64,000 nucleotides of DNA from Stegostoma tigrinum (Eukaryota): contig NC_081355.1 of NCBI RefSeq assembly GCF_030684315.1, forward strand, positions 31,451,141 through 31,515,140, written 5' to 3'. Numbering within the stretch: the stretch's first letter is position 1; every line of letters begins with the position of its first letter. The translations under genes were made by a program, and so were the position numbers. The notes below the pieces were generated by a model. It saw nothing but the letters and a program-made list of their open reading frames with translations, made no database searches and had not been told where the DNA came from. Below, one piece after another: positions 24,570 through 60,840 of the stretch.

Positions 24570-25816
24570 GAGATAATGGAAACTGCAGATGCTGGAGAAT
24601 CCAAGATAATTAAAGTGTGAAGCTGGATGAACACAGCAGGCCCAGCAGCATCTCAGGAGCACAAAAGCTGACGTTTCGGGCCTAGACCCTTCATCAGAGA
24701 ATGGGATGGGGAGAGGGAATTGGAATGTAATAGGGAGAGATGGGGAGGCGGACCGAAGATGGAGAGAAAAGAAGATAGGTAGGGAGGGGATAGGTCAGTC
24801 CAGGGAAGATGGACAGATCAAGGAGGCGGGATGAGGTGGTAGGTAGGAAATGGAGGTGCGGCTTGAGGTGGGAGGAAGGGATGGTTGAGAGGAAGAACAG
24901 GTTAGGGAGGCAGAGACAGGCTGGGCTGGTTTTGGGATGCAGTGGGGGAAGGGGAGATTTTGAAGCTGGTGAAGTCCACATTGATACCATTGAGCTGCAG
25001 GGTTCCCAAGCGGAGTATGAGTTGCTGTTCCTGCAACCTTCGGGTGGCATCATTGTGGCACTGCAGGAGACTGTGATGGACATGTCACCTAAAGAATGGG
25101 AAGGGGAGTTGAAATGGTGCACGACTGGGAGGTGCAGTTGTTTATTGCGAACCGAGCGGAGGCTTGGGGACCGCTTTGCAGAACACCTCTGCTCGGTTCG
25201 CAATAAACAACTGCACCTCCCAGTCGTGCACCATTTCAACTCCCCTTCCCATTCTTTAGGTGACATGTCCATCGTGGGCCTCCTGCAGTGCCACAATGAT
25301 GCCACCCGAAGGTTGCAGGAATAGCAACTCATATTCCGCTTGGGAATCCTGCAGCCCAATGGTATCAATGTTGACTTCACCCGCTTCAAAATCTCCCCTT
25401 ACCCCAGTGCATCCCAAAACCAGCCCAGTTCATCCCCTCCCCCACTGCATCCCAAAACCAGCCCAGCCTGTCTCTGCCTCTCTAACCTGTTCTTCCTCTC
25501 ACCCATCCCTTCCTCCCACCCTAAGCCGCACCTCCATTTCCTACCTACTAACCTCATCCCACCTCCTTGACCTGTCCGTCTTCCCTGGACTGGACTGACC
25601 TATCCTCTCCCTACCTCCCCACCTATACTCTCCTCTCCACCTATCCTCTTTTCTCTCCATCTTTGGTCCACCTCTCTCTCTCTCTTCGCCCCTTTATCCC
25701 AGAACCCTCCCCCCATCCCCCTCTCTGATGAAGGGTCTAGGCCCGAAACGTCAGCTTTTGTGCTCCTGAGATGCTGCTTGGCCTGCTGTGTTCATCCAGC
25801 TTCACACTTTATTATC
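24570..25816. mobile_element. Inverted, doubly 5'-truncated PLE insertion (1247 bp)
   Basis: Antisense arm 24570-25162, sense arm 25155-25816; TSD tattatccaggtct at 24556-24569 and 25817-25830; GIY-YIG remnant RRLGDRFAEHL. Confidence 0.92.
25725..25752 (+). ncRNA. Minimal hammerhead ribozyme motif
   Basis: CTGATGA-a-gggt(ctag)gccc-GAAAC-GTC. Confidence 0.7.
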
Positions 25817-27571
25817 TATTATCCAGGTCTTCCTGCATTTGAACATGAACTACTTCAGTATCTGAGGATGTGTGAATTGTGCTGAAATTGTGTAGTTATC
25901 GATGAATATCCCCATTTATAACCTTAACATGGAAGGAACGTCATTGATGAAGCAGCTGAAGGTGGTTGGGCTTAGGAACTCCTGAGGAACTCCTGTAGAG
26001 ATATCTGGGAGCTAAGATGAGTGACCTCCAGTAATCATAACCATCTTGTGTGTCAGGTATGATTCCTGCCAATGGAGAGTTTACCTTGATACTCACTGAT
26101 TCATTTTTGTGAGGGTTCCTTATGCCATACATTTGAATATGGCTATTAACTGTCACTGTCTCCTCACCTCTGAAATTCAGCCTTTTGTGTCCATGTTTGA
26201 TCCAAGGTATAATAAAATCAGGAGCTAGCGGGTCAGTAAGCAGGTTATTGCTGAGCAGATGGTACTTGATCGTACTGCTAATGGTACTTTCCATCACTTT
26301 AATGATTGAGAGTAGGCTGATGGTCTGAGTTGGATTTGTCTTGGCTTTTGTACAGAGGATCTACCTAGATGAGTGTCCACTTTATCAGGTGGATGTCAAT
26401 GTTGTATCTGTACTGGAACAGCCTGGCTAAGGGTGTGGCTAATTCAAGAGCACGTCTTCAGTACTATTGCTGGAATGTCAGGGCCAAACAGCCTTTTTAG
26501 TATCCTGTGCCTCCAACTGTTTCTTGATAACACAAGGAGTGAATTGAATTAGCCGAAGACTGGCATCTGTGATGCTGAGGGACCTTTGGAAAAGACTGAG
26601 ATGGATTATCCACTTGGTATCTCTGGCTGAAAATTGTTGTGAATGCTTGAGCGTTATCTTTTGCACCAATATTCCTCCTCCTCTGTTGCAGATGGGGATA
26701 TGCATGGAGCTGCCTCCTCCAATGAGTTGCTTAATCACAAAATGTGTGGCAGGACTGCAGAGCTCAAATCTGATGTGTCAATTCTGGGATTGATTGGCTC
26801 TAACGTGCTGCTTTTGCTGTTTGTCATCAGTTTGTTACCTCATTTTTCGGTATTCCTGATCCTGTTCCTGGCATGACCTCGTACTCTTCATTGAACCATG
26901 GTTGAGCCTTTGGCTTGATGGTACTGGTAGAGGAGCAGGTATGCTGGGTCATGAGATTGCAGATTGTGTTGGACTAAGGTTCTGCTGCTGCTGATGCCCC
27001 TCTATGCTTCATGGATGCACTTCTTGAGTTGCTGGATTGGTTCAATGTCTGTGACATTTAGCATGATGAAAGTCCCGTGCAATGCAAAATAAATTGCGAT
27101 CAGTGTGAAGGCAGGACTTCATGTCCACAATGACTTTGCGGTGGTAACTCATACTGATACTGTTTTGGACAGATCCAACTGTGACAGGTGGTGAGGATGA
27201 GATCAGTTATGTTTTTTCCCTCTTGTTGGTTCTGTCACCACCTGCAAATCCATTCTAGCAGCAGTATTCTTTAGGACTCGACCATCTCGGTCAATACTCC
27301 TGCTGTGTGTGCCTGTTCGTGGTGGATACTGAAATCCTGTGCCCTTGCCGCACTTTGTGCTTCCTTTGTCTTGTTGGAGGAGTGCTGATCCATCAGCCGG
27401 GAGGTGATAAGCAGCAGGTGGTTTCCTTGTACATATTTGACTTGATGCTTGAGACCAATGTTGGGTGCCAATGTTGAGGACTCCTCCCAGGGCACCTCCC
27501 TCCTGTCTGTATTCCACTGTGCCGTCATATCTGCTGGGCCTGTCTTCTTGATGTGACAGGACGTGACCAGA

Positions 27572-27594
27572 GATGATGATGATGATGATGATGA
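27572..27594. repeat. (GAT)7 microsatellite
   Basis: gatgatgatgatgatgatgatga. Confidence 0.9.
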
Positions 27595-29074
27595 GGGTGG
27601 AGTCTAAAAGGTATGATTCTGTGAATAGCTGAGCATTCAGTGACACATTAATTTCTTCCTTTTTTTTGAATTATAGTCAACCAAGAATTTGCATTGTATA
27701 GTGCTTTTAACGTTGTAAAATACTTGCAATATTTTACTGAAACACTATCAGAAAAATGATGACGCAAAATTTGAGTAGAGGTTTTAGAACAGATGACCAA
27801 AATTTTGATCAATAAAGTAGGGTTTAAACAGAATCTTAAGGGAGGAAGAGTGGTAGAAAGGCAGAGAAGAGTGCAAGAGATTTAAGATCTCAGTAACTGA
27901 GGGCATTACCACCAATAGCGGACTAATTTTAAAGTTGGAGATGCACATAAGGCTAGATATGAAGAAGAACAAAGATCTCAAAATTGTGTGGCTAGAGGAA
28001 TAAACACCTTGTATTGCTTTACATAAAGACAGAGTGGAGTCTAGACAAGTGTTTCTGCTTTTCAAAAAACTATTCATGTAAATGAGTCTTGCTGTTGCCT
28101 GTCTGTGTTTAACTTTGCTCACTTTGTGTATGCTAGTTAATTTCTCCCTGCATTCTAGTCAGTCTGTATTTTACAGACATGGAGCATTTTGGCAAAACCT
28201 CCAAATTGTTGTGGTCAGTGGATGCAATTTCTGATCCTTCCCAACCCATGCAAGCTAATCTAGAATGGTACATTATTTAAATTCTGTTTGCTTTACATCA
28301 CATGTAGTAAATGTAACTTGACAGGAGGGGGAAAATGTGACTTTAGACCTAAGGTTCCTATAGTCTCCCTCGTATCATTTCTGGATTTGTGGGAGACTGT
28401 TTGACAGAGAATGACTGCAGTTGGTTTGGTGACGACACTATTGTCATTAACTACTGAGGTGACAGGCCAATCAATTGGCCTTGATAATTCTGGAAGAGAA
28501 ATTTCTTTATTCCTTCGCACTGCATTGTGCTAAAGAGATTTTCTGACACACATCAGTGTGATACATCAGTACAGTTATGTTCTTCAGCCATATAAGATCT
28601 TAAACTTCTTGAATCTAATGATTTCCAAAGTCGTCTTTATCATAGAATGGCTACAATAAAGAAAGACGTCATTTTAGCCAAATGTCCATATCAGCTTTCT
28701 GCAAGAGAAACTCAGCTAGTTCCATTTCCCTGCTTTTTATCTTTAACTCCATCTATCTTATTTTTCTCTTTTCTTCTGTTAGTTATCCAATTCCCTTTAT
28801 GAATTTGCCACCGCTACGCGCTCAGGCAGTTTATTCCAAATCCTAACTACTTGTCAAGTCAGATATGTTTTACCTTCTTTCACCTCTGAATCATTTGCTA
28901 ATCATCTTAAATCATGTTTTCTGATTGTCAACCCTTCCTCCAATGTGAAGTATTTTTCCGTACCCATACTGTCTTGAACCTTCATGATTTTGAACATTTC
29001 TGTAAAATCTCTTCTTCTTATGAAAGAGTGGAGATATAGGACAACTTTCCCCTTCTCGTCTTTTGACTAATATA

Positions 29075-30560
29075 GCAAATAGAAGTAGGCCATTTGGCCC
29101 TTTAAGCCTGCTCCATCATTTGTTATGAACATGGCTGATCATCCAACTCAGTGGCCTGTTTCTGTTTTTCCTCCATATTCATTGATAACTTTAGCCCTAA
29201 GTCCTCTTCCCAACTCCTTATTGAAATTATATCATGCTTTCACCTCAACTGCTTTCTGTTGAGGCCGATTCCACAGGCTGGCTGGTGTGTGGATGAAGAA
29301 GTCTCCCTTATTCTCATTCCTCAGTGGTTTATCTGTATCTTGACTGTGACCACTGGTTCTGGATTCCACCACAACCTGGAGCATTGTTCTTGTATCTGTC
29401 TTGTCAAGTTCATTTAGAATCTCATAGCTTTCTATGAGATTCTCCCTCTTTCTTCTGAACTCTAGCTAGTATAATCCTCACTTTTATATCATTAATATGT
29501 GTTGTGAATAGGTAGGATCCTACCATTGATCTTAGTGTTATCCAATAGTTATTGCCTGCCATTTGGAAAAAGGCCCATTTATTCCTCTCTTTTGTTACCA
29601 ATTTGCTGACCAGTTTTCTATCCACTTCAATCCACTACCCCCAGTTCCATGCTCTTTAATTGTACATGCTAATCTTTTTTATGTGGGACTTTGTCAAAAG
29701 CTTTCTAAAGTCCAAATAAACCTCTTCCACTGATTTCCTTGCATCAACTCTACTAATTACATCTCTCAAAGCACTCCAGTAGATTTGTCAAGCATAAATT
29801 CCCTTACATAAATCCTATTCAATTCTGCCACTCTTTTCTAAATGTTTAACTCTTAAAATCTTTTACAATAAGTTCCAGCATTTTCTTCATGATAGACATC
29901 AGGCTGACTGGTTTATAATTGGTTTTTTTCTCTCTACCTCACTTTTTAAATAGAGTGGTTACATTAGCTGCCCTCAAACGTGTAGGAACTGTTTGAGTCT
30001 ACAGAATTGTGGAAGATGACCAGTGATACATCCACAACATCTAGAGCTACTTGCTTATATACTTGGAATGTAGATTGTCAGGCCCTGGGGACTTGCTGGT
30101 CTTCAAATCCATCAAAGCATCATTTTTCAACTCATCCTAATTTGCTTCAGTTGCTCTGAATCTCCAAACCGTGTGTTCCCCAGCATTTCTGGTTTGTTAT
30201 TTGTGTCCTCCTTTGTGAAGATGCAACAAAAGCATATGTGTAGTTGGCAAAAAAAACCCAAAAGAACTGCAGATGCTTGAAATCTGAAATAGGAACAGAA
30301 ATTGCTGGAAAATCTTAGCAGGTCTGGCAGCATCTGTGGAGAGAAGTCAGACCTGAAGAAGGGTCACTGAACCCGAGACGATAACTAATTTCTCTCCACA
30401 GATGCTGTCAGACATGCTGAGATTTTACAGCGATTTCTGTTTTTATATATGCAGATGGTCAGCCATTTCTCGGTTCCACATTATAATTTCTCCTGTTTTT
30501 GACTGAGAGACCTACGTTCATGTCTGTCCATCTTTTTCTCTTCATATACCTATAGCCCGC
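29075..30560 (-). mobile_element. Decayed, internally deleted CR1-like LINE hosting the 30250 hairpin
   Basis: gaagtaggccatttggccctttaagcctgctcc 3' end; gggactttgtcaaaagctttc (reverse of KAFDKVP). Confidence 0.7.
30250..30445. mobile_element. Short inverted PLE-like insertion, older family, decayed hammerhead in loop
   Basis: aacagaaattgctggaaaatcttagcaggtctggcagcatctgtggagagaa pairs with ttctctccacagatgctgtcagacatgctgagattttacagcgatttctgtt; loop ctgaagaagggtcactgaacccgagacgat; left tail. Confidence 0.75.
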
Positions 30561-31500
30561 TGACTGTAAATGTTTCTAACTTGCTCACAATGTTTTCCCT
30601 CCAACGTGCTCCTTGAATGCATAACAGGCTTTCTTGTAAGTTTAAATGCAAAGATAGGATAAGTGATTCTGTTGCACGATGCCCAAAATGTAATCACAAC
30701 AAATGCTCGCTCCTCATCCACCGAGACACATACAAAGGTGGATGGTCTCTAAGGTACGTAACATGCACTTTGACTTTCAGGACTTGAAAAAGAAATCTGT
30801 TATACCTGTTTCTCCAGTATGATTGCCGGAATGCTTGTAGGCCAGAACATTGCCAGTTCACTAAATTAGATGCTGAAAATGTCAGGTGATGAATTTTCAG
30901 TAGTTTGATTTGAAGTAAGAGCAGGAATCTGGTTTTTCCAGCTGAAGATGTGGTTCAGCTCCTTTTTTAAAAAACGATAACCTGCAGGTACAATCAAACA
31001 GCTCCACTTCTGTGCCTGAGTTGACGACTTCTTCGAGGCAAGATCTCTATCTGTGTGTCTGTATCTCTCTCGCTCTCTTGCTTTGGGGTACATAACCCAG
31101 ATTGACATGCCCTGGCCCATCCTTGTAAATTAGTTAGGTAGGTCCAAGTGTTCCCCCTCATAAGCAAGTTTCTATCATGTGACAAAAGTAATGATGTTTT
31201 TCCGTTAACTAAGCATTGAGTGGATTTACCACAAATTGGCAGATGTTTAGTACAATTCATATCTGCTTTTGGTTGTGACTGTTTTATGCCATTCTTTGTT
31301 AGATGCAAGTTTGCTCGTATCAAGTCTGAAATGCTTATTTTATTTGAGTTTTGGCAATGAGGCAACAGTAGCTGTCAAATTTAAAGTATTTAATTTGAAC
31401 AGAGATAATGGGAACTGCAGATGCTGGAGATTCCAAGATAATAAAATGTGAGGCTGGATGAACACAGCAGGCCAAGCAGCATCTCAGGAGCACAAAAGCT

Positions 31501-31528
31501 GACGTTTCGGGCCTAGACCCTTCATCAG
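31501..31528 (-). ncRNA. Minimal hammerhead ribozyme motif (left arm)
   Basis: Reverse complement of ctgatgaagggtctaggcccgaaacgtc. Confidence 0.7.
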
Positions 31529-31752
31529 AGAGGGGGATGGGGGGAGGGAACTGGAATAAATAGGGAGAGAGGGGGAGGCGGACCGAAGATGGAGAGCAAA
31601 GAAGATAGGTGGAGAGGGTGTAGGTGGGGAGGTAGGGAGGGGATAGGTCAGTCCAGGGAAGACGGACAGGTCAAGGAGGTGGGATGAGGTTAGTAGGTAG
31701 CTGGGGGTGCGGCTGGGGGTGGGAGGAAGGGATGGGTGAGAGGAAGAACCGG

Positions 31753-33412
31753 TTAGGGAGGCAGAGACAGGTTGGACTGGTTTTGGGATGCAGTGGGTGG
31801 GGGGGAAGAGCTGGGCTGGTTGTGTGGTGCAGTGGGGGGAGGGGATGAACTGGGCTGGTTTAGGGATGCAGTGGGGGAAGGGGAGATTTTGAAACTGGTG
31901 AAGTCCACATTGATACCATATGGCTGCAGGGTTCCCAGGCGGAATATGAGTTGCTGTTCCTGCAACCTTCGGGTGGCATCATTGTGGCAGTGCAGGAGGC
32001 CCATGATGGACATGTCATCAAGAGAATGGGAGGGGGAGTGGAAATGGTTTGCGACTGGGAGGTGCAGTTGTTTGTTGCGAACTGAGCGGAGGTGTTCTGC
32101 AAAGCGGTCCCCAAGCCTCCGCTTGGTTTCCCCAATGTAGAGAAAGCCGCACCGGGTACAGTGGATGCAGTATACCACATTGGCAGATGTGCAGGTGAAC
32201 CTCTGCTTAATGTGGAATGTCATCTTGGGGCCTGGGATGGGGGTGAGGGAGGAGGTGTGGGGACAAGTGTAGCATTTCCTGCGGTTGCAGGGGAAGGTGC
32301 CGGGTGTGGTGGGGTTGGAGGGCAGTGTGGAGCGAACAAGGGAGTCACGGAGAGAGTGGTCTCTCCGGAAAGCAGACAGGGGTGGGGATGGAAAAATGTC
32401 TTGGGTGGTGGGGTCGGATTGTAAATGGCGGAAGTGTCGGAGGATAATGCGTTGTATCCGGAGGTTGGTAGGGTGGTGTGTGAGAACGAGGGGGATCCTC
32501 TTGGGGCGGTTGTGGCGGGGGCGGGGTGTGAGGAATGTGTCGCGGGAAATGCGGGAGACGCGGTCAAGGGCGTTCTCAATCACCGTGGGGGGGAAGTTGC
32601 GGTCCTTAAAGAACTTGGACATCTGGGATGTGCGGGAGTGGAATGTCTTATCGTGGGAGCAGATGCGGCGGAGGCGGAGGAATTGGGAATAGGGGATGGA
32701 GTTTTTGCAGGAGGGTGGGTGGGAGGAGGTGTATTCTAGGTAGCTGTGGGAGTCGGTGGGCTTGAAATGGACATCAGTTACAAGCTGGTTGCCTGAGATG
32801 GAGACTGAGAGGTCCAGGAAGGTGAGGGATGTGCTGGAGATGGCCCAGGTGAACTGAAGGTTGGGGTGGAAGGTGTTGGTGAAGTGGATGAACTGTTCGA
32901 GCTCCTCTGGGGAGCAAGAGGCGGCGCCGATACAGTCATCAATGTACCGGAGGAAGAGGTGGGGTTTGGGGCCTGTGTAGGTGCGGAAGATGGACTGTTC
33001 CACGTAACCTACAAAGAGGCAGGCATAGCTGGGGCCCATGCGGGTGCCCATGGCCACCCCCTTAGTCTGTAGGAAGTGGGAGGAGTCAAAAGAGAAGTTG
33101 TTGAGTGTGAGGACGAGTTCCGCTAGGCGGATGAGAGTGTCGGTGGAGGGGGCCTGGTCGGGCCTGCGGGACAGGAAGAAGCGGAGGGCCTTGAGGCCAT
33201 CTCCATGCGGAATGCAGGTGTACAGGGACTGGACGTCCATGGTGAATATGAGGTGTTGGGGGCCAGGGAATTGGAAGTCCTGGAGGAGGTGGAGGGCGTG
33301 GGTGGTGTCACGGACATAGGTGGGGAGTTCCTGGACCAAAGGGGAGAAAATGGAGTCCAGATAGGTGGAGATGAGTTCGGTGGGGCAGGAGCAGGCTGAG
33401 ACGATGGGTCGA
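31753..33412 (-). CDS. 5'-truncated PLE reverse transcriptase + GIY-YIG endonuclease (left arm)
   Basis: RPIVS, TMDVQSLYT, GVAMGTRMGPSYA, RYIDD, CNRRKCYTC linker, VVYCIHCTRCGFLYIGET; no stops; no native start. Confidence 0.9.
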
Positions 33413-33413
33413 A

Positions 33414-35165
33414 CCCACACCCACAGCCTCCAACCTCATTGTTCCCCAACCCCGCACAGCCCGTTTCTATCTCCTTCCCAAAATCCACAAACCTGCCTGC
33501 CCTGGTCGACCCATCGTCTCAGCCTGCTCCTGCCCCACCGAACTCATCTCCACCTATCTGGACTCCATTTTCTCCCCTTTGGTCCAGGAACTCCCCACCT
33601 ATGTCCGTGACACCACCCACGCCCTCCACCTCCTCCAGGACTTCCAATTCCCTGGCCCCCAACACCTCATATTCACCATGGACGTCCAGTCCCTGTACAC
33701 CTGCATTCCGCATGGAGATGGCCTCAAGGCCCTCCGCTTCTTCCTGTCCCGCAGGCCCGACCAGGCCCCCTCCACCGACACTCTCATCCGCCTAGCGGAA
33801 CTCGTCCTCACACTCAACAACTTCTCTTTTGACTCCTCCCACTTCCTACAGACTAAGGGGGTGGCCATGGGCACCCGCATGGGCCCCAGCTATGCCTGCC
33901 TCTTTGTAGGTTACGTGGAACAGTCCATCTTCCGCACCTACACAGGCCCCAAACCCCACCTCTTCCTCCGGTACATTGATGACTGTATCGGCGCCGCCTC
34001 TTGCTCCCCAGAGGAGCTCGAACAGTTCATCCACTTCACCAACACCTTCCACCCCAACCTTCAGTTCACCTGGGCCATCTCCAGCACATCCCTCACCTTC
34101 CTGGACCTCTCAGTCTCCATCTCAGGCAACCAGCTTGTAACTGATGTCCATTTCAAGCCCACCGACTCCCACAGCTACCTAGAATACACCTCCTCCCACC
34201 CACCCTCCTGCAAAAACTCCATCCCCTATTCCCAATTCCTCCGCCTCCGCCGCATCTGCTCCCACGATAAGACATTCCACTCCCGCACATCCCAGATGTC
34301 CAAGTTCTTTAAGGACCGCAACTTCCCCCCCACGGTGATTGAGAACGCCCTTGACCGCGTCTCCCGCATTTCCCGCGACACATTCCTCACACCCCGCCCC
34401 CGCCACAACCGCCCCAAGAGGATCCCCCTCGTTCTCACACACCACCCTACCAACCTCCGGATACAACGCATTATCCTCCGACACTTCCGCCATTTACAAT
34501 CCGACCCCACCACCCAAGACATTTTTCCATCCCCACCCCTGTCTGCTTTCCGGAGAGACCACTCTCTCCGTGACTCCCTTGTTCGCTCCACACTGCCCTC
34601 CAACCCCACCACACCCGGCACCTTCCCCTGCAACCGCAGGAAATGCTACACTTGTCCCCACACCTCCTCCCTCACCCCCATCCCAGGCCCCAAGATGACA
34701 TTCCACATTAAGCAGAGGTTCACCTGCACATCTGCCAATGTGGTATACTGCATCCACTGTACCCGGTGCGGCTTTCTCTACATTGGGGAAACCAAGCGGA
34801 GGCTTGGGGACCGCTTTGCAGAACACCTCCGCTCAGTTCGCAACAAACAACTGCACCTCCCAGTCGCAAACCATTTCCACTCCCCCTCCCATTCTCTTGA
34901 TGACATGTCCATCATGGGCCTCCTGCACTGCCACAATGATGCCACCCGAAGGTTGCAGGAACAGCAACTCATATTCCGCCTGGGAACCCTGCAGCCATAT
35001 GGTATCAATGTGGACTTCACCAGTTTCAAAATCTCCCCTTCCCCCACTGCATCCCTAAACCAGCCCAGTTCATCCCCTCCCCCCACTGCACCACACAACC
35101 AGCCCAGCTCTTCCCCCCCACCCACTGCATCCCAAAACCAGTCCAACCTGTCTCTGCCTCCCTAA
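33414..35165 (+). CDS. 5'-truncated PLE reverse transcriptase + GIY-YIG endonuclease (right arm including spacer)
   Basis: Spacer continues the frame upstream of the listed ORF: PTASNLIVPQPRTARFYLLPKIHKPACPGRPIVS; remainder identical to left arm. Confidence 0.9.
   Translation, partial: PTPTASNLIVPQPRTARFYLLPKIHKPACPGRPIVSACSCPTELISTYLDSIFSPLVQELPTYVRDTTHALHLLQDFQFPGPQHLIFTMDVQSLYTCIPHGDGLKALRFFLSRRPDQAPSTDTLIRLAELVLTLNNFSFDSSHFLQTKGVAMGTRMGPSYACLFVGYVEQSIFRTYTGPKPHLFLRYIDDCIGAASCSPEELEQFIHFTNTFHPNLQFTWAISSTSLTFLDLSVSISGNQLVTDVHFKPTDSHSYLEYTSSHPPSCKNSIPYSQFLRLRRICSHDKTFHSRTSQMSKFFKDRNFPPTVIENALDRVSRISRDTFLTPRPRHNRPKRIPLVLTHHPTNLRIQRIILRHFRHLQSDPTTQDIFPSPPLSAFRRDHSLRDSLVRSTLPSNPTTPGTFPCNRRKCYTCPHTSSLTPIPGPKMTFHIKQRFTCTSANVVYCIHCTRCGFLYIGETKRRLGDRFAEHLRSVRNKQLHLPVANHFHSPSHSLDDMSIMGLLHCHNDATRRLQEQQLIFRLGTLQPYGINVDFTSFKISPSPTASLNQPSSSPPPTAPHNQPSSSPPPTASQNQSNLSLPP
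35042..35150 (+). repeat. 39-nt tandem repeat x~3 at the PLE ORF C-terminus
   Basis: ccccactgcatccctaaaccagcccagttcatcccctcc; PTASLNQPSSSPP/PTAPHNQPSSSPP/PTASQNQSNL. Confidence 0.85.
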
Positions 35166-35389
35166 CCGGTTCTTCCTCTCACCCATCCCTTCCTCCCACC
35201 CCCAGCCGCACCCCCAGCTACCTACTAACCTCATCCCACCTCCTTGACCTGTCCGTCTTCCCTGGACTGACCTATCCCCTCCCTACCTCCCCACCTACAC
35301 CCTCTCCACCTATCTTCTTTGCTCTCCATCTTCGGTCCGCCTCCCCCTCTCTCCCTATTTATTCCAGTTCCCTCCCCCCATCCCCCTCT

Positions 35390-35417
35390 CTGATGAAGGG
35401 TCTAGGCCCGAAACGTC
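35390..35417 (+). ncRNA. Minimal hammerhead ribozyme motif (right arm)
   Basis: CTGATGA 35390-35396, stem II gggt/gccc, GAAAC 35410-35414, palindromic ACGT, predicted cleavage after GTC (35417). Confidence 0.72.
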
Positions 35418-35732
35418 AGCTTTTGTGCTCCTGAGATGCTGCTTGGCCTGCTGTGTTCATCCAGCCTCACATTTTATTATCTATTTAATTTGAACATTTG
35501 TTTGTTGTGAAAATATTGAAGACAGAGAATAAAGGCAGTTTGATTGGCATTTATAACCTCCAATATTTGTTAAACCATTATTTGTGAGATTTTAAATTGC
35601 TTGGAGTAAGAAGTTTCAATTTGAGGTGGCCATTTTGATACTATGTACTCCTAACAATTAAAATTTGAAGTGTTTTTAGTTTTGTTGAATCCTGTGCTCG
35701 GTCCATTCTCATTTACTTTTCTTCTGACCTAG

Positions 35733-41689: not shown

Positions 41690-44130
41690 AAATGTATTAA
41701 AAAGTAGAGATTAATTGGTATGGTCTTATACTCATTGAGATGTGGTTACCAGGGGATCAAAGCTGGGAACAAACTCTTCAGGGGTATAGAACTTTTCAAA
41801 AGGACAAGTAGAAAGGGAAGAGTGGTGGGTTATCGATGTTCGAATGAGATGGAGCAAGTATGATAGCAAGAATTAATCTTGAATTGAATGATGCAAGATA
41901 CGTTGGTTAGTAGTAAGAAGTAATGAGGAAAAAGACACTGGTGGGAATCTATAAGCTACCTTTAAAAATATCTGTTCTGTAGTACTGTGACCATAAAGTA
42001 GAATTTGTCATTCAGCTGGAGACTGAGAAACTGTCAGAAGCAACTGTGCGGAACTTAAATAAAAATAATTACATAGGAACGAGGGCAGTGTTAGCTGGAG
42101 TAGACTGTGAAAGGAGCTTAGCAGTAAATATGATTGAGGAACAATGGCAACAAAAATATATCCTAGTGAAGAGTTGGATGTAGGAAGGAGATAAACTGAT
42201 GTAGTTAACCAGTTAAGTTAGGAGTGGCAATAATTTGAAAGAAAAAAAAATACCATAAGGCAAAGATTAGTGGTTAGTCAGAGGATTGGAAAATTTTGAA
42301 AGCCAAGACAAAAGCAAACAAAAAAAACTATTGGGGAAATTAAGAGCTTCTTTCAGTATGTAAGAAGGAAAGGAGAGGGCACAGGGAACATAGTCTTCTT
42401 AGATAACGAGGCTGGGGAAATAAGGATCGGAAACCAGAAATTGGGCAGTGGAGGTGAACTGCATCAGTCTTTAGGTTAGAGCGCACTAATAACATTTCAA
42501 CACAATTGCATAATCGAGCTGGGAGAGTAAACACAACAAACTGTCACCAGAGACACACAACTTGTGAAACTAGTACTAAACATTGATAAGTCCGCTGGAC
42601 CAGATGGGATGCATCCTTAGATTTTAACAGAAGTAGTTCCAGAGATAGTATGTGCACTTAAATTCTGGAAAAGTCCCAAAGGATTGGAAATCTGGCCATG
42701 TAACACATTTATTCAAAGAGGGAAGGAGACAAAACAGGTAACAAGAAATGTCTATTATCATCTATTGTAAAGGATGCAATAGCAGATCATTTCGAAATGC
42801 ATAACATAATCAAGTGTAGTCAGCATCACTTCATGAACAATAAATCAATTTTATTAGAATTCTTTGAGGAGGTAACAAGTAGGATGGATAAAGAAGAAGC
42901 AGTGAATGTAATATACTTGGATTTCCAAAGGAACCCCACACACTGCTGTTTAATAAGATCAGAGATCATAGGGTTGGGTGCACTATTATCATGGATAAAG
43001 GATTACCTAACTAATACAAACAAGGAGGAGACATAAAGGCAGGCATTTTCAGGATGGCGACTTGTAACTAATAGAGTGCCTCAGGCATCAGTGCTAGAGT
43101 TACAATTATTTACATTCTATTTTGATGATTTGGACGAGGAAAGTGAATGTGCTATCGCTAGATTTGCGGATGATGCAAAAATAGACAGGAAGATAAGCAG
43201 TGAGAATACCACAAGGAGGCTACAACAGGGTGTTGATAGATTTATGAGTGGGCAAAATCTTGACACATGGAGTGTAATGTGGGAAAATGAGGTTATGTAT
43301 TTTGGCAGGAAGAATAGAAGACATAAATATTATTTAAATAGAGAAAGATGATGGAAAGCCGCAGCACAGAGAACTTTACAGGATCTCATGCATGAATCAT
43401 AAAAAAACTAGCATCTAAATTCAGCAGGTAATTGAGAACGCAGATTAAATGTTGGCCTTTATTTCAAGGGGAATAGAGGATAAAAATGGGGAGATCTTCT
43501 TAAAACTGTACAAGGTGCTAATCAGACCATACATGGAACATCATGAACAGTTTTGGTCCCCTGATCTGAAGAAGGGTCTAGGGCTGAAACCGTCAGCTTT
43601 CCTGCTCCTACGATGCTGCTTGGCCTGCTGTGTTCATCCAACTCTACACCTTGTTAACTAAGAAAAAATAAACTGGCATTGGAGGCAGTCCAGACAAAGT
43701 TCACTGGGTTGATCCTGGTTATGGAGAGATTGTTTTATGAGGAGATGTTAAGTAGATTGGGCCTCTACTCGTTGTTTCCTCTCATTCTTCTAAACCCCAT
43801 TCTTAGGGAGCTTGACAGGGTAGATGCAAAAAGTTGTTTCCCCATATGGTGCCCATCTAGGACCAGAAGTCGTCATCTCAATAGAAAGTATTGCCCATTT
43901 CAGACAGATGAGAATTTTTTTCTCTCCAAGGATAGTGAATCTGTACAGTTATTTTCTGCAGAGGGATGCTGAGGTTAAGTCATTAAGTATATTCTGGGCT
44001 GAGACAGATTTCTCATCAGGGATGAAGCAGGATAGTGGAGTAGAGGATTATCGGAACTGATGTGTTCTCATTGAATGGTAGAACAGACTCAGTGGTCCAA
44101 GTGACCTACTTTTTGCTTCTTTATCCCTCA
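41690..44130 (+). mobile_element. Decayed CR1 LINE ORF2
   Basis: LLEFFEEVTSRMDKEEAVNVIYLDFQ, FADDAKI, LKLYKVLIRP..E...QFWSP. Confidence 0.85.
43565..43639 (+). mobile_element. 75-bp PLE 3'-end fragment inside CR1
   Basis: tctgaagaagggtctagggctgaaaccgtcagctttcctgctcct...gctgtgttcatccaactctacaccttgttaact, homologous to 35389-35482. Confidence 0.8.
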
Positions 44131-53691: not shown

Positions 53692-54155
53692 GAGTCATAG
53701 TCATACAGCATTGAGACAAACCCTTCTGTACGACTTGTCTGCACTGGCAAGGCATCCCAATCTGACCCAGTCCCATTTGCCAGCATTAGGATCATAATTC
53801 TCTAAACCCTTCCTATTCATATATCCACCTAGATGCTCTTTTAGATGCTGTAATTGTACCAGCCTCCTCCACTCCCTCTGGCAGCTCATTCCATACACGC
53901 GCCACCCTTATGTCCTTTTTAAATCTTTGTTTCCTCACCTTAAACTTATGCCCTCTAGTTCTAGACACCCTGCCCTAAATAAAAGACCTTGTCTATTCAC
54001 CCTATCCATGCTTGACTTTATAAACCTCCATAAGTTTTCCCCTCAGCCCCTGATGCTCCAGGGAAAAAGCCTCAGCCCGTTAAATCAAACCTCCAGTTAC
54101 AGAAACATCATTGTAAATGTTTTCTGCACCATCTCAAGTTTAACAATATCCTTCC
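53692..54155 (-). mobile_element. CR1 3' fragment
   Basis: gagtcatagtcatacagc tail; RKDIVKLEMVQKTFT. Confidence 0.75.
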
Positions 54156-54458
54156 GAGTCAAGAATATGCCAAACAATGAATAAAGCACAATTCCTCTGG
54201 ATAGAATTATAAATGCAGATTTCCATTTATGTAGCATCCTTTGCAAGGACAAAACAGCCCAAAGTACTTTATGTTCAGTAAAGCACATTTACGTGATTGA
54301 GCAGATGAATGTTGGCCATCTCATCATCTGTCTTGGCCCTCTCTTTGGTGGGCTATTTTCTCCTGGAATGAGAAAAAGGGAGGAATTGGGTGAGATGAAA
54401 GTGGCTGCCATTGCTGTTTGGTGTTGGTGCAGGTAGAGAAAAGGTGGTTAGATGTTGG

Positions 54459-54751
54459 CATAGTGGTTATCACTGCTGCCTCATGGTGCCAGGGGCCTGG
54501 GATCGATTCCAGCCTCGGATGACTGTCTGTGTGGAGTTAGTACATTCTCCCTGTGTCTGTGCAGGTTTGCTCCAGTATCCTCCCACAGTCCAAAGAAGTG
54601 CAGGATAAGTGTATTGGCCATAATAAATTGCCTGTAGTGTGCAGGGATGTGTAGATTGGGTGGGCTATAGGGGGATAGGTCTAGGTGGGTTGCTCTGACA
54701 TTCAGTGTGGACTGGTTAGGCTGAAGGGCCTTTTTCCACACTATAGGAATT
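54459..54751 (+). mobile_element. V-SINE (HE1-like)
   Basis: Homologous to the 9366 element. Confidence 0.8.
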
Positions 54752-57084
54752 CTGAGAAATGTCCTGAATGAGCAGGAAGCATGGATGACGGGAAGAGTAA
54801 GTTGTACAGGGAAACCGTGATCAGTATTGGTGGGGGAGAGTTATTGAGGGAAGGCGCTGCATGCGATACTGAAAGTGGTAGAACATGAGCCTTATTTGGA
54901 AGTGAGTGTAGTAACGGAATTACAGTTAGTGTAAGGTAGCAGAGAGAAGATGGTGGCACTTAATCCTGCAGAGTGCAGAAGATCATTTACTTTGCATTGC
55001 TTAGTGTTCTTCCAGATGGTGGCTACTTCATTGACACGGATGGAAACATCAGACCAGGCTGGCAGCATTTAATACTGTGACTTTGTCTAGTGCTTCTGGA
55101 AAAATCCTTCTATAGAGGAGCACAATATAGTTCATTGTGCATTGAAGTTCAGCAATAATAGTTCAATATAGTTCAGCAGTGCATTAGAGGGGAGTGCATA
55201 TTTAGTCAGGAGCACAGAGGAGTCTTGTGAGAGAGAACTTGCTAGAGATTTCCGAGAGGAACCCTCCATTCAACTAATCAAAATTTGACATGCACATTTT
55301 TGGAAAAATTTCAACCCCTCATTTTTCCTTGCCTGGTTACTAAGCTTAATGTCATTGCCATAACTGTATAACCATAGAAAGGTTACATCATGTTTAAAAT
55401 ACCTCTGCAGGCTTTTTTTTGTTTTTTTTTCTAATTGACCTGTTCAGAGATTATTTCACATCTTAAAAGCAAGTGAGACTTGAACCCAGGCCTCCTGGTC
55501 CATTGGTAGGGACACTGCCACTTCACCAAAAGTCAATTCAGCCCATCATAATTCTGCTGGCTGAACAAACTAGCCACCTGTTCTAATCCACCTAACAGCA
55601 TCTGGTTCGTACCCTTGCAGGTTAGTGATCTTCACGTTTGCACATGCAGGTTCCTCTTAAATGAGTTGATGGTTTCTGCCTTAACCATCAAACTGGACAG
55701 CAAATTCCAAACACCAAGCACCATCTGGGTGAAAAAGGCTTTCCTTATTTTTCTTCTTTCAATCACCTGAATCATCTGTGAATCCTGATAATTGATCTCC
55801 ATTGTAAGTTCCTCATTCAGCTAAAAATACGATTTACAGAAAGAGGAAGGATAGTGGAAGACTTGCTGTGGTGTGAGCCAATTTATAATTCCCTAGTCCT
55901 TCTTTATTTGGGAGGAAGAGTCACAGACTGACCAGATGATGGTTGTCTGTATCAATTTGCATCCAGCCTGCGTTTGGCAAGTGCACACATGTATCTTGGT
56001 ATAGGAGCCACTAAATGGTTGATCAGGACTTTCTCTTCTGAAAACCCAGCAAAACTGAGACTGATTTTAGTCCTGAAGCTTCCTTAGCCAAGATCAATTA
56101 CTTTTTGTACTCTGCAGATTTAAAACTGATGTGAAGATAAAATAATTTTGCGCTAATGCTAACTTTACAATGAATTTGGTGTAGGGGTTGAAACTGACTG
56201 CAGTAGCAAGTAAGTCTGCTTTGACCTTGGTTTCTCCATCTACTACATTCTCCAACTCAGTCAAGGCTAAATTCACAGGATAACTGCAGTGTTAGTGTAA
56301 AGCAAGATAACCTCGCATCTGAGTTTACTGTTGTAATGTGAATGCACACTAACTCAAAGCCCAAATGGGCTCCAACTCTCAATGTTTGCAGATTTATCCC
56401 TACCTTCACAATACTAGCTCCAAGAGGTGGAAATTCTTCCATGTTATTCACTGACTTCAGCATGATGTTAACAACTTCTTTCAGTGCACCCAGGTGAATC
56501 AAAACAAACATAGCAACACACAGGATTGGGAAAGACCATGCAGTCCAGCACCTGATCTCATTGATAATGAAATCCCATTGTGCCATTAGTACCTTTTAAG
56601 CAAAGCTATTGTCAGCTACTCTATGTAAGCTGTCTTGAATTTGCTGAAATTTATTATCTTTAGCTTTTTCTGTAATTACATTACCTACACTTGTCACTCT
56701 CTATATAAAATGCTTAGATCTAAACCACCCTTTTTATCTTGTACTTTTCTAAATGTTTCATTATTCATGTTTCTAAAATAAAAATCAAGGACATTTCTTT
56801 TTTGTGAAACATCCAACATTTTTCCTTGTAGAAAACCATGCTGACTATCCCAAATCAATTTTTGCCTCTCTAAATGTCCATAAAACCTTCTCTTTTAAAA
56901 TCACCACCAACAATTTACACAACCAAAGTCAGCCTCATGGGTCTTTAGTTCCCTGGTTTCTCCTAACAGCGTTCCTTAAACAAAGGTACAGCATTGGAGG
57001 GTGGCTAATCATCAGACTCCTCACCCATACGTGCAGATATTGCAAATATTTCTGCAATGGGTCTCTCAGAAATATTTGCATCAT

Positions 57085-58527
57085 CAATAACTATGGGTGA
57101 GGTGCCTGATGATTGGAGGGTGACTAATGCTGTACCTTTGTTTAAGGAAAGTTGTAAGGAGAAATTAGGGAACTAAAGACCCATGAGGCTGAATTTGGTT
57201 TTGGGTAGCTTGTTGGAGGTGATTTTAAAAGATAGAATTTATGTCCAGTTAGAAGGCAAAAATTGATTTAAGGATAGTCAGCATGTTTTATGTTAAGAAA
57301 ATCGTGTCTTACAAACTTGATTTGCTTTTTTTTGAGGATGTTACCACAAAGATTGAGAGAAGAGCAGTAGATGTTGATAACTTGGACTTTAGTAAAGCTT
57401 TCAACAAGGTTCCGCATGGCAGACTAATTAGTAAAGTTCGATCACATGGGATTCAGGGTGAGCTCACCAATTGGACATGTAATTGGTTTAATGGCAGGAA
57501 AAAGAGCATGGTGGCAGAGGGTTTTTTTGGTATCTGGAGGACTGTGACCAGTGGTATTCTACTGGGACTGGTTCTGGTTCCTCTTTTGTTTGTCATTTAT
57601 ATAAATGATTTGGATGAGAATATAGAAGGCATGGTTAGTAAGTTTGTGGATGGAACCAAAATTGATGGCATAGTAGACAGTGAAGAAAATTATCAAAGAT
57701 TACAAAGGGATCTTGAACAAATGGGTCAATGGCCTGAAAAACCTGAGTTCAATCTGGAAAAATGCATTTTGGTGCAACAAACAAGGGTAGGACTTATACC
57801 TGTGATGGTAGGGCCTTGAGTAGTGTTGTAGAGCAGAGACACCTAAGGGTTCAGGTATATGATTCTTTGAAGTTTGTGCTTCAACTCGGCAGGGTGTTTA
57901 AAAAGGCTTGTCTTCATTGCTCAGTCCTTTTGAGTATAGGAGTCAGGAAGTCATGATGAGGTTGTACAAGTCATTGGCGAGGCTTCTTCTGGAATACTGT
58001 GTCCATCTCTGGTTGCCAAGTTACAGAAAGGATATTATTAAGCTGAAGAAGATTCAGAAGAGATTTACCAGGATGTTGCTGGGTATGGAAGGTTTGAGTT
58101 ATAAAGAAAGACTGGATAGGCTGTGACAGTTTTCTCTCTGCAGCATAGGAGGTTGAGAGTAGACCGGATAGAAGTTTATCAAATAATGAGGGGTACAGAC
58201 AGGGTTAATGGTAGTTGTCATTTGTCTAGGATGGGGGATTTTAAGAATAGGGCATACATTTATAAGGTGAGAGAAGAGAGACTTAAAGACGTGAGTGGCA
58301 AATATTTTATACATGGGATGGTTTGTGTCTGGATTGAACATCCTGAGGAAGTGATGGATGTGCGTGTAATTAAAATATTTGTTTAAGAGACATTTGGATA
58401 AGTACATGAATAGGAAAGGTTTACAGGGATACGGGCCAAGAGCAGGCAGGCAGGACTTGTTTAGTTGGGGATTATATTCGGCATGGACTGGTTGAACCAA
58501 AGAATCTGTTTCCGTGCTGTATGACTC
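57085..58527 (+). mobile_element. CR1 LINE ORF2 3' half, decayed
   Basis: LDFSKAFNKVPHGRL, LFVIYINDLDE, LYKSLARLLLEYCVHLWLP. Confidence 0.9.
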
Positions 58528-59113
58528 TTCGAGAGCCCAAATGCCCCTTGGGGAGTTTTTTATAACTCACTGGAGGTAATGTACTAGAAATCGAGCACCA
58601 TGATTCCCACAGTTGTCACAAAAGTTAAATATGTTAAAAATTACACAAAGTTCCCAAATTCACCTGAGTTTTAGACCCAGATTGATCAAAATCATGGACC
58701 AGGTTTCTACACTAATCAAGAATCACAAGAATCGTTACATGTAATTAGACTCTAGCTACAGGTAAATGGTTATAAACTGTTTGGCATATAACATTACTAA
58801 TTAAAACTCTAATCCTCTGACACACACTCCCCTTTTATACATATATAGACAGACAAAGAGACAAGGTAAAATAGGTTATGAACAAAGGGGAAAAGCTGGA
58901 AAGATAGTTTTTTCCTAGATTCTGTTGTTGAGATGATTCTTATGACTTTTCTGCTTGCCAGCATATTGCTTCAGTCATCTTTCTCCAGACTCTCAGGTTG
59001 TTAAGATTCACAGATGGCTGGTTCACTCATTAAAAAAATTCTCTGACTCTTTAGTTCAGTCAGTTTACAACAACTGTTGCAGAAAAGATGATAAATGGGT
59101 TTATTTCAGGTTT

Positions 59114-60022
59114 AGAGATAATGGGAACTGCAGATGCTGGCAAATCCAATACAACCAAGTGTGGGGCTGGATGAACACAGCAGGCCAAGCAGCATCTTAG
59201 GAGCACAAAAGCTGACGTTTTGGGCCTAGACCCTTCTTCAGAGAGGAGAGGGTTCAGAAATAAATAGGGAGAGGCGTACTGAAGATAGAAGAGAAGATAG
59301 GTTCAGAGGAGAGTATGAGTGGGGAGGTAGGGAAGGGATAGGTCAGCCCGGGGAGGATGGAGAGGTCAAGGGGGCGGGATGAATTTAGTAGGTAGGAAAT
59401 GGAGGTGCGGCTTGAAGTGGGAGGAGGGGATAGGTGAGAGGAAGAACAGGTTAGGCAGGCGGGGACGAGCTGGGCTGGTTTTGGGATGCAGTGGGGGGAG
59501 ATTTTGAAGCTGGTGAAGTCCACATTGATACCATTGGGCTGCAGGGTTCCCGATGCCACCCGTAGGTTGCAGGAACAGCAACTCGTATTCCGCTTGGGAA
59601 CCCTGCAGCCCAATGGTATCAATGTGGATTTCACCAGCTTCAAAATCTCCTCTCCCTCCACTGCATCCCAAAACCGGTCCAGCTCGTCCCCACCCCCCTA
59701 ACCTGTTCTTCCTCTCACCTATCCCCTCCACCCACCTCAAGCCGCACCTCCATTTCCTACCTACTAAACTCATCCCGCCCCCTTGACCTGTCTGTCCTCC
59801 CTGGGCTGACCTATCCCCTCCCTACCTCCCCACCCATACTCTCTTCTGCACCTATCTTCTCTATTTATCTTCAGTCCACCTCCCCCTCTCTCCCTATTTA
59901 TTTCAGAATCCTTTCCCCATCCCCCTTTTCTGAAGGAAGGTCTAGGCCTGAATCATCAGCTTTGGTGCTCCTAAGATTGTTGCTTGGCCTGCTGTGTTCA
60001 TCCAGCCCCACAATTTGGTATC
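59114..60022. mobile_element. Inverted, doubly truncated PLE insertion (909 bp)
   Basis: Antisense arm 59114-59551, sense arm 59552-60022; TSD ttatttcaggttt at 59101-59113 and 60023-60035. Confidence 0.92.
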
Positions 60023-60499
60023 TTATTTCAGGTTTTAGTGAGTTTTGACCATAGAGAATGTAGAGACCACTCCTGAGCTGGGGAGAAAATTCAGCAGATC
60101 TCTTTCTCAATAACTTGTCCCCAGCTTTAAGCAGTTCATTTACCTAAGAGCCAATCATACAATTGTGGCAGGTAAAAAGATCTCTGTCATTGATAACTGG
60201 TCACTTGTCCATAAATCAAACAGCCTCACAAGAACAAAAAGAAAGACAACCTTTTATTGCCAGAAGAGGCTGCATCTGTACACTTCCTTGCCTCCAAGTC
60301 ACCAACTCAAACTTTAATTACTTCTTATTAAAACAGTTGTTTAATGATGCTTGCCTTGAATGTCAGGTTACTTATTTTTCAAAATGACAGACACCTCCAG
60401 AATTGGGGTTAAAACAGCTTTCTAATTTGAATCCAATTTTTGAAATGACACAGCAAAAGTACATGGTCTTTACAAGATGTAAATGATCGAACATGTTAT

Positions 60500-60840
60500 G
60501 TTGAGGAAAAGTTGATAGGAGGTTCTCCTGGTACAATGGCCAATGTTTATCTGTTAAACAACTTCTCTAAAACAAATGATCTGGTTAGTATCTTACTGCT
60601 GTATAGAGGATGCAATAAGCAGAATTAATTGCTGTTCATTCCTTATGTGAAGTCCCTACAACAAAATAAGAAGTATCAGTGATAATGGGAACTACAGATG
60701 CTGGAGAATCCAAGATAATAAAATGTGAGGCTGGATGAACACAGCAGGCCCAGCTGTGTTCATCCAGCCTCACATTTTATTATCTCGCATAAGAAGTAGT
60801 TAGTTTGTATGAAATGCTAGGATATCCTGAAAGTCGCAAT
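60500..60840 (+). mobile_element. DeuSINE-like relic hosting the 60676 hairpin
   Basis: ggttctcctggtacaatggccaatgtttatctgttaaacaacttctctaaaacaaatgatctggtt resembles the Deu domain as recalled. Confidence 0.5.
60676..60788. mobile_element. 113-bp minimal inverted PLE insertion
   Basis: Perfect 33-bp arms 60713-60745 and 60753-60785, loop aggccca, left tail; TSD ataagaagta at 60666-60675 and 60789-60798. Confidence 0.9.

Follow-up and report, generated by a model that had tools for sequence, protein, structure and literature searches.

How can a retroelement insert as a palindrome that carries a tail at only one of its ends? This question is raised by four insertions in the window, i.e., the whole 64,000-nucleotide stretch of Stegostoma tigrinum DNA analysed here. 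An earlier note, made from the letters alone, had placed them at 24570, 31402, 59114 and 60676 and described a common plan. Both the coordinates and the plan are correct for all four, which are real insertions with a duplicated target, a tail, an antisense arm and a tail-less sense arm. In the following, element positions are counted from the tail end (0), with the natural copy L166 as the reference sequence.

24556..24569: copy 1, left target-site duplication, 14 nt (right copy 25817-25830)
24570..25162, minus strand: copy 1, tailed arm, reference 0 to -690 (tail about 24570-24603)
25150..25817, plus strand: copy 1, tail-less arm, reference -726 to -34
31387..31401: copy 2, left target-site duplication, 15 nt (right copy 35482-35496)
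31402..31435, minus strand: copy 2, tail, 34 nt
31436..33412, minus strand: copy 2, tailed arm body, 1,977 nt, identical to 33506-35482
33413..33505, plus strand: copy 2, loop, 93 nt (88 nt of sense element sequence after 5 extra letters)
33506..35482, plus strand: copy 2, tail-less arm body, ending at reference -34
59101..59113: copy 3, left target-site duplication, 13 nt (right copy 60023-60035)
59114..59551, minus strand: copy 3, tailed arm, to reference -534
59552..60024, plus strand: copy 3, tail-less arm, from reference -578, first 44 nt unpaired and sense
60666..60675: copy 4, left target-site duplication, 10 nt (right copy 60789-60798)
60676..60754, minus strand: copy 4, tailed arm, to reference -75
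60753..60788, plus strand: copy 4, tail-less arm, reference -66 to -34, plus 3 extra letters

The arms of copy 1 share 13 overlapping letters at a natural inverted repeat, while those of copy 2 are 100% complementary over 1,977 nt and reach -2009 (tailed) and -2097 (tail-less). The loops of the three larger copies (93 nt in copy 2, 44 nt in copy 3 and 23 nt, 25163-25185, in copy 1) are sense, as had been described, the tail-less arm reaching further each time. In copy 4, the tail extends a few letters into the next unit and the arms overlap by 2 letters at the junction. This 113-bp copy had been set apart for its longer tailed arm, correctly, although the difference is 9 nt (7 unpaired) and not about 5. 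An assembly or amplification artefact was ruled out by the unique flanks, the exact target duplications (14, 15, 13 and 10 nt), the one-sided tail and an empty allele of copy 2 inferred in two public samples.

Identity of the element

Judged by its sequence features, the arrangement is the known insertion pattern of an abundant Penelope-like retroelement, of the Neptune/Nematis type rather than Penelope/Poseidon. The coding features come from copy 2.

33418..35165, plus strand: 5'-truncated open frame with reverse transcriptase (RT) core, linker and GIY-YIG endonuclease
33972-33983, plus strand: RT core motif YIDD
34629-34655, plus strand: CX4CxxC linker between RT and endonuclease
34740-34793, plus strand: GIY-YIG endonuclease with a CxxC between its two motifs

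This frame encodes 596 amino acids, with the RT followed by the C-terminal endonuclease. The Pfam RVT_1 match is weak (E 2e-5, under the curated cut-off). For the C-terminal part, the nearest clusters are GIY-YIG (score 0.96), the family being present on 13-22% of their members. A search by sequence for a solved relative returned none. A CX2-5CxxC linker defines Neptune and Nematis, whereas the Penelope/Poseidon clade is without the linker that is present here. The CxxC inside the GIY-YIG motifs agrees with the definition of endonuclease-bearing Penelope-like elements in the part of PMC8557442 consulted. A pseudo-LTR arising from a partial tandem was found at locus L180, where the tail sequence continues into the start of the open reading frame. 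The family is large, with 68,594 exact copies of one 48-nt end, and apparently still polymorphic.

Common source and end points of the arms

Copies were collected by pattern searches of the genome. Among 190 tail ends sampled from the more than 19,000 in the assembly, 113 belonged to two-armed tailed/tail-less insertions and 63 had no inverted arm; 103 two-armed copies were used for the arm statistics. Target duplications were mostly 13-16 nt. A second set of 48 further copies was scored for loops and length class. An initial sample, anchored 2 kb inside the element and thereby biased to long copies, was excluded from the statistics; it showed the same mix.

The two arms of one insertion come from the same source. 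Their length classes agree in 102 of 103 pairs (short/short 56, short/long 1, long/short 0, long/long 46; 51 mixed pairs expected), and the 48 further copies gave 40, 1, 3 and 4 in the same order, with 10.5 mixed pairs expected. The earlier note had suggested private variants as a check on a shared origin. Counting as private those variants absent from all other sampled tailed arms, 32 non-CpG variants are common to both arms against 0.6 expected; they occur in 19 of 53 long pairs, and for 26 of them the arms of the pair are unequal. Between arms, lineage markers agreed 912 times and disagreed 39 times (171 discordant expected). What shared variants demonstrate is a common source locus; taken alone they do not prove a single molecule, and part of them could stem from gene conversion between the arms. 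Together with the excess of identical ends described below and the single tail per pair, these counts bear out the one-source part of the earlier proposal, and both arms were probably copied from the same RNA molecule. Each long junction was made afresh, because none of the 46 is seen twice; this also rules out that older palindromes were copied wholesale.

The end points present a more mixed picture. Long pairs ending at most 20 nt apart are ninefold enriched (10 of 46 vs 1.1 by permutation), and ends at most 3 nt apart were seen in 5 of 46 pairs vs 0.3. The general claim that both arms stop at almost the same point does not hold: in 36 of 46 long pairs the arms differ by 34-1,904 nt, the tailed arm being longer in 23 and shorter in 13. 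Because of these 36 unequal pairs, the signal for one molecule comes from about one fifth of the long pairs together with the short class. Loops longer than 20 nt were antisense in 26 and sense in 21 of the 103 copies (p=0.56), and 8 vs 7 in the 48 further ones. A constant sense direction, whose absence the earlier note had itself counted against its model, is thereby contradicted; three sense loops out of three, as in the window, arise by chance with a probability of about one in ten.

Arm ends pile up at two places, given here in the coordinates of copy 2.

35386, plus strand: wall at reference -130, where many short copies stop, with an untemplated G preceding
35390..35417, plus strand: minimal hammerhead core, a motif read from the sequence
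before 35418 (reference -98), plus strand: hammerhead cut predicted from the motif

At the wall, 77 ends lie at -120 to -132 and only 3 at -133 to -169. Of 24 cDNA ends at -128/-130, 17 continue with an untemplated C, vs 56 of 161 elsewhere (p=0.001), although some of these C letters may derive from the target duplication or from the other arm. The wall is likely the start of a capped RNA. Arm ends also pile up at -98, the predicted cut of a putative hammerhead whose core motif and stem II can be recognised in the pseudo-LTR; the element sequence gave no match to a hammerhead in Rfam. Genome-wide, 952 loop-less palindromes are centred at -130 and 595 at -98, compared with 67 places for a control palindrome at -111, a rough control only, since the pattern contains four CpGs and is lost more quickly. 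A weak test on the single marker -72 (12 of 82 short vs 10 of 97 long) does not point to a separate short subfamily. Three copies pair a short tail-less arm (98-117) with a tailed arm that is longer (169-300); such a combination calls for an early stop or for trimming.

Proposed two-ended priming and its rivals

With moderate confidence, we read these copies as head-to-head Neptune/Nematis-type insertions with one-source arms, in which likely both 3' cut ends prime on one RNA about 34 nt apart. The endonuclease would nick both strands about 14 nt apart; of the resulting ends, one would start cDNA synthesis at the tail end (positions 0 to +18) and its partner near -34. The RNA would be copied twice, the first cDNA being displaced by the second, where strand displacement by the element RT is assumed. 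Wherever both cDNAs run off the RNA 5' end, they would finish at the same base; this end may lie at about -130 (the capped start), at -98 (the hammerhead cut) or at a random break. In all other cases, one or the other cDNA may stop or be trimmed first, so that the loop can be sense or antisense. Finally, a few paired bases, a blunt jump or short templated inserts would connect the cDNA 3' ends, followed by fill-in. One-armed copies would arise where hardly any cDNA, or none, was made from one of the ends. Neither independently drawn RNAs nor pure self-priming nor a fixed trailing polymerase can account for the counts, whereas two-ended priming on one template fits them. Against this reading, a folded-back cDNA copied by a second polymerase predicts the same variant sharing, and in PMC11167929 the two strands did not differ in vitro, each of them using both start sites.

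The likeliest rival, though we regard it as unlikely, is the following: an RNA-copied arm folds back, and the other end primes at a fixed RNA site and switches to the folded DNA. The second arm would then be a DNA copy of the first, a scheme that includes the published self-priming on an antisense template (proposed in the consulted part of PMC3846280); fold-back at breaks is known (PMC11724301). It would explain the shared variants, the length-class concordance and the near-equal ends. Microhomology of at least 2 nt is enriched at insert-free wide junctions (16 of 27 vs 13% by chance), which speaks for the two-ended reading as well, and the junction of the 24570 copy sits on its natural inverted repeat. 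However, self-priming needs a stem and a loop of at least about 3 nt, and 19 of 103 junctions, 4 of them long, leave a spacer of 0-2 nt, which is too tight; the earlier note had likewise held that simple fold-back alone does not fit. The more than 1,500 loop-less palindromes at -130 and -98 also speak against it, as do loops of up to 1.9 kb with 0-5 nt of pairing and the inserts at 19 of 46 wide junctions. Among inserts of at least 5 nt, 8 of 10 copy nearby arm sequence. Fold-back would have to be possible in either arm, and repeated restarts at a hard end were seen in the tailed or in the tail-less arm, which points to a separate growing 3' end for each arm.

Less likely still is a protein dimer with two RNA molecules from the same active locus, one per cut end. 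A dimer is predicted for the anole element (PMC11167929), and two RNAs would account for the shared variants and for the frequent inequality of the arms, whichever is the longer. They leave unexplained why ends coincide at arbitrary positions (the 10 of 46). Moreover, a single locus would supply templates of both length classes, yet a mixed pair occurs only once in 103, and free choice of the start site predicts many both-tailed pairs, of which one flank-bounded example was seen vs 113 tailed/tail-less insertions.

The earlier note itself had favoured a tail-primed polymerase trailing the internally primed one by about 34 nt, with a joint stop and a sense loop, which now appears highly improbable. 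The sense loops of the window's three larger copies agree with it, and so does one complex copy, in which 45 nt separate the ends and each arm has restarts of 43-45 nt. Among restarts of at least 19 nt in sets A and B (those under about 19 nt escape alignment), 7 of 9 step back 31-45 nt. This is only a hint, since shorter templated inserts also occur. Host end-joining produces such inserts, and in L297 a later expansion may have given rise to the five-fold repeat. Apart from the loop directions and the 23 vs 13 split of the long pairs, a sense offset of 25-60 nt was found in just 1 of 46 long pairs (10 sense vs 6 antisense with all lengths pooled, p=0.45), and a 34-nt offset between arm ends is not the rule in the 103 copies. 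The trailing polymerase is refuted as a general rule and could survive only as a minority path.

Scarcely credible, finally, is the formation of near-perfect palindromes first and of unequal arms by later central deletions: long palindromes do lose central symmetry, and near-equal pairs make up 7 of 21 youngest vs 5 of 32 older long pairs (p=0.18), but 14 of the 21 youngest are already unequal, 7 of these without any arm-to-arm difference, and in L271 and L124 the shorter arm terminates in restarts repeated at one fixed point, a mark of where synthesis originally ended.

Two-ended priming on one RNA could be extended, tentatively and with considerable doubt, to a dimer that holds two strand-displacing RT sites about 34-45 nt apart on one RNA, each primed from one of the cut ends. 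Palindromic insertion would then be the normal route, the 31-45-nt restarts at some junctions would reflect a cDNA 3' end passed back to the second site once the template is exhausted, and the short copies would record a capped start in the pseudo-LTR together with ribozyme cutting in vivo.

Comparison with known retroelements

Published work already includes inverted copies, the tail on one side only, the two start sites of the RT and the extension of both strands of the target. The priming half of our reading is anticipated by Frangieh et al. 2024 (PMC11167929), who described cutting and extension of both strands and two adjacent RT start sites that define the tail. Their element PAc (Poseidon of Anolis carolinensis), for which the dimer was predicted, resembles the present one in its tail, which lies within the RNA and continues into the start of the open reading frame, and in the hammerhead (here putative) of the pseudo-LTR. 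PAc belongs to the Penelope/Poseidon clade, whereas this element has the CX2-5CxxC linker of Neptune/Nematis. Inverted copies are not discussed for PAc ("inverted" appears once, for a blocking nucleotide), one versus two RNAs is not asked, and no RNA reads were seen there to end at the ribozyme site.

In the consulted parts of Craig et al. 2021 (PMC8557442), Arkhipova et al. 2013 (PMC3846280, Pen2a_Av) and PMC2377424 (D. virilis Penelope), endonuclease-bearing Penelope-like units contain, as here, an inverted 5'-truncated copy joined at the 5' end, a 30-40-nt tail on one end, a target duplication, partial tandems, palindromes at the inverted junction and a hammerhead motif in the pseudo-LTR. 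Unlike those units, most two-armed ones here are without a tandem part. The same parts suggest endonuclease resolution or self-priming on an antisense template, and do not count arm end points, shared variants or the direction of loops.

L1 twin priming, the route to 5'-inverted L1 insertions, as presented in the part of PMC11702581 consulted, likewise has both target ends priming one RNA, keeps the target duplication and end-joins two cDNAs with microhomology. However, its second priming uses a variable internal site and gives adjacent segments with a 1-10-nt deletion or duplication. In our reading, the second site lies at a constant 34 nt from the first, so that one stretch is copied twice and forms a palindrome; the arms overlap over their whole shared length, which agrees with the earlier view that L1-type twin priming does not fit.

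Our literature searches returned no paper on arm end points or a shared template. The way in which Penelope-like elements form inverted structures is named an open problem in the consulted part of PMC8557442, and PMC11167929, the sole in vitro study that the searches returned, leaves this question aside. The arm counts narrow the options for how these structures form, and the two-ended model makes two mappable predictions, namely an RNA start and a ribozyme cut site. Because the family is large and apparently still polymorphic, it is a steady source of long palindromes in the genome.

The four insertions and their element

Comparison of the window against itself recovered four structures, and the plan that had been read from the sequence (target duplication, tail, antisense arm, tail-less sense arm, target duplication) was borne out in all of them. 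Arm extents were measured against L166, a natural tailed copy of 3.6 kb from the same genome, with its tail end as position 0 and upstream positions negative.

Arm extents of the four insertions, named by window start, relative to L166
24570 copy: tailed (antisense) arm to -690, tail-less (sense) arm to -726
31402 copy (4 kb): tailed arm to -2009, tail-less arm to -2097
59114 copy: tailed arm to -534, tail-less arm to -578
60676 copy (113 bp): tailed arm to -75, tail-less arm to -66

The 23-, 93- and 44-nt loops of the 24570, 31402 and 59114 copies, respectively, run in the sense direction as described in the earlier note, with 5 extra letters within the 93. The 113-bp copy is indeed the exception with the longer tailed arm, but the excess is 9 nt rather than about 5 nt. 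In the 31402 copy, arm identity is complete across 1,977 nt, and 0 of 1,835 columns differ between the arms, while the nearest of six other copies differs at 7. Differences between arms number 38 in 491 columns for the 24570 copy and 33 in 335 for the 59114 copy; both copies are older and less telling on a shared source.

A contig of 2,074 nt in runs X7 and X9, two samples from one study, aligns to the left flank with no mismatch; its continuation, 1,064 letters long, departs from the insertion. Since the length of this continuation runs to 36560, about 30 nt inside the next right-flank repeat, we infer an empty allele at the 31402 site, from the length match rather than a letter-by-letter reading. 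In two public samples, at least one haplotype appears to lack the 4-kb palindrome (31387-35496), and the family may hence remain mobile. A fifth, older piece of the element 3' end (43557-43660, about 84-87% identity) partly retains the hammerhead core and is without inverted arm or clear tail. Inverted repeats unrelated to the element at 56833-57289 (about 460 nt), 19661-19776 and 30294-30441 (76-84% identity) are probably decayed DNA-transposon remnants.

In the open frame on the sense arm, an RT core is followed by a CX4CxxC linker and then by a GIY-YIG endonuclease that carries an inner CxxC. Judged by these motifs, under the definitions of endonuclease-bearing Penelope-like elements and clades in the relevant part of PMC8557442, the element is of the Neptune/Nematis type; the Penelope/Poseidon type was rejected on the CX4CxxC linker. 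Copies L011 and L166 carry an in-frame 27-nt tandem repeat of varying copy number in the ORF stretch that separates the helical N-terminus from the RT. In the tandem copy L180, the tail passes into the beginning of the following ORF and is thus internal to the RNA, as likewise described for the anole element in part of PMC11167929. A minimal hammerhead core is predicted, from its motif, 98-126 nt upstream of the tail end; an Rfam search of the element returned no hammerhead match. Hammerheads in Penelope-like repeats are described in part of PMC4209133. The two tail variants gave 15,554 and 4,009 exact pattern matches in the 3.2-Gb assembly, and the arm-end 48-mer gave 68,594.

Common source and end points of the arms

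For the first tail variant, the first 100 places listed make up set A; for the second, 100 places were listed and the first 90 of them form set B. All are on one contig (C1), and the choice by exact pattern makes them young copies. Automatic classing of these 190 tail ends gave 99 that were two-armed and simple and 10 that were two-armed with additional pieces; 63 had a single arm, 31 of these with a target duplication of at least 8 nt. Of the rest, 6 ended in a second tail, 3 were internal and 9 fell elsewhere. Four pairs rescued by hand (L055, L132, L143, L155) brought the simple pairs to 103; L110/L111 and L144/L145 each mark both ends of one insertion. Set C, which is biased against long copies close to locus edges, held 157 additional tail ends in retrieved DNA with 59 simple pairs, of which 48 were left after 10 long-anchored pairs and one nested mis-parse were dropped.

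Both arms of an insertion have one common source. The proposed check on private variants returned 32 non-CpG variants that the two arms share and all other sampled tailed arms lack (0.6 expected), spread over 19 of 53 long pairs (46 simple, 7 complex), with 26 of them in pairs with unequal arms. Lineage markers were concordant between arms in 912 of 951 calls, where 171 discordant calls were expected. One tail per pair was found 113 times in sets A and B, where tail-free pairs are invisible, against one flank-bounded both-tailed insertion. Among 30 places anchored on the arm end irrespective of the tail and read by eye, seven were complete two-armed insertions with one tail each. The second insertion of L149 has both arms tailed, with the palindrome centred on the ribozyme site (-98/-98). 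At L169 (5250-5700, reverse orientation), the inverted arm consists of the tail alone, about 30 nt, and abuts a sense unit of nearly full length beginning directly after the tail.

The earlier note saw sense loops in the three larger copies and proposed that a trailing polymerase stops together with a leading one. Among the 103 pairs, 26 have a tailed arm that exceeds the other by more than 20 nt and 21 a tail-less arm that does so (p=0.56), the remaining 56 differing by at most 20 nt; in set C the counts are 8 and 7. Loops equally often antisense, the result named as refuting, were looked for in the genome copies and found. When both arms exceed 150 nt (46 pairs), the tailed arm is longer in 23 and the tail-less arm in 13, with differences up to 1,904 nt, and a sense offset of 25-60 nt occurs in only one, which speaks against trailing with a joint stop.

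Short/short and long/long pairs number 56 and 46, with a single mixed pair (51 expected) among the 103; in set C, 4 of 48 are mixed against 10.5 expected. Coincident ends at arbitrary positions are in excess: against 1.1 by permutation, 10 of the 46 long pairs have ends no more than 20 nt apart, and for a 3-nt limit the count is 5 against 0.3. Leaving out equal-end pairs, the arm-length correlation is marginal (rho 0.33, p=0.05).

Preferred stops and junctions

Arm ends accumulate at -120 to -132 (77), with only 3 at -133 to -169, though the element extends upstream. An untemplated C follows the cDNA end in 17 of 24 cases at -128/-130 vs 56 of 161 elsewhere. A pattern with a non-templated letter before -130 fits 7,541 genome places; in the first 100 listed, counted by eye, this letter is G in 70, T in 23 and A in 7. 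Once 13 places whose upstream sequence is intact, and about 30 whose G possibly comes from the other arm, are set aside, also by eye, G remains in 35 of 57. Part of PMC9341517 links an untemplated 5' G to copying of the mRNA cap, and part of PMC2377424 describes an internal promoter in a Drosophila element. We infer a putative capped RNA start at about -130, whereby short copies would be run-offs from the start-site pair near the RNA 5' end. Cap-copied C on both cDNAs would give them self-complementary ends, in keeping with the 952 loop-less palindromes that have their centre at -130 genome-wide.

A second accumulation lies at the predicted ribozyme cut, -98, with 595 loop-less palindromes compared with 67 at a control site that has more CpGs. 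Because the -98 site is itself a 4-letter palindrome, ribozyme cutting in vivo is only suggested. About 400-720 nt before the anchor of L060, head-to-tail units of about 99 nt, from -98 to the tail end, lie inside an inverted insertion and look like end-to-end template jumping on ribozyme-cut RNA.

An exact stem with a 0-2-nt spacer is present at 19 of 103 junctions. The junctions look like products of end-joining: microhomology of at least 2 is present at 16 of 27 wide junctions without insert (13% by chance), and inserts in 19 of 46 wide junctions, 8 of the 10 longer ones being copied from neighbouring arm sequence. In seven complex junctions the cDNA restarts behind a hard end, with nine distinct step-backs of about 31, 33, 34, 36, 41, 43, 45, 57 and 72 nt; in L044 and L124, the tail-less-arm restart coincides with the tailed-arm end. 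These step-backs may reflect how far apart two active sites lie, but host repair or hairpin formation accounts for them equally well. Junction pieces from far upstream in the element (e.g. -2530 to -2680) at L184, L190, L230, L254 and L276 point to long template jumps or capture during joining.

Two proposed start sites on one probable template

Two nicks and two start sites fit the target duplications, mostly 13-16 nt (85 of 103, overlaps counted), and the positions of the ends: 0 to +18 for the tail, and -26 to -45 with a mode at -34 for the tail-less arm. According to part of PMC11167929, a protein of this kind in vitro both cleaves and extends the two strands, starting at two neighbouring RNA sites that define the tail, and a dimer is predicted. 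Beyond these in vitro data, the genome copies indicate a different site for each end and a single template for both. In the proposed mechanism, two nicks would be made and each target end would use its own start site on one RNA.

Two RT passes over this one RNA are somewhat favoured as the origin of the arms. Copying of a folded-back cDNA after priming is a less probable route (fold-back at breaks is described in part of PMC11724301), and two RNAs transcribed from one locus are more doubtful still. The strict trailing model of the earlier note is very improbable, and deletion at the centre after insertion, taken as the chief cause, is about as improbable.

Inverted copies, one-sided tails and junction palindromes have already been described in parts of PMC8557442, PMC3846280 and PMC2377424. 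In contrast, the segments produced by L1 twin priming are adjacent, not duplicated (part of PMC11702581). Inverted units are not addressed in the passages found of a 2026 retrozyme preprint (10.64898/2026.07.22.740005), and a literature search, with older subscription papers outside its scope, returned no paper counting arm end points or testing for a shared template. The element belongs to a known kind, and what is added are quantitative constraints on its mechanism.
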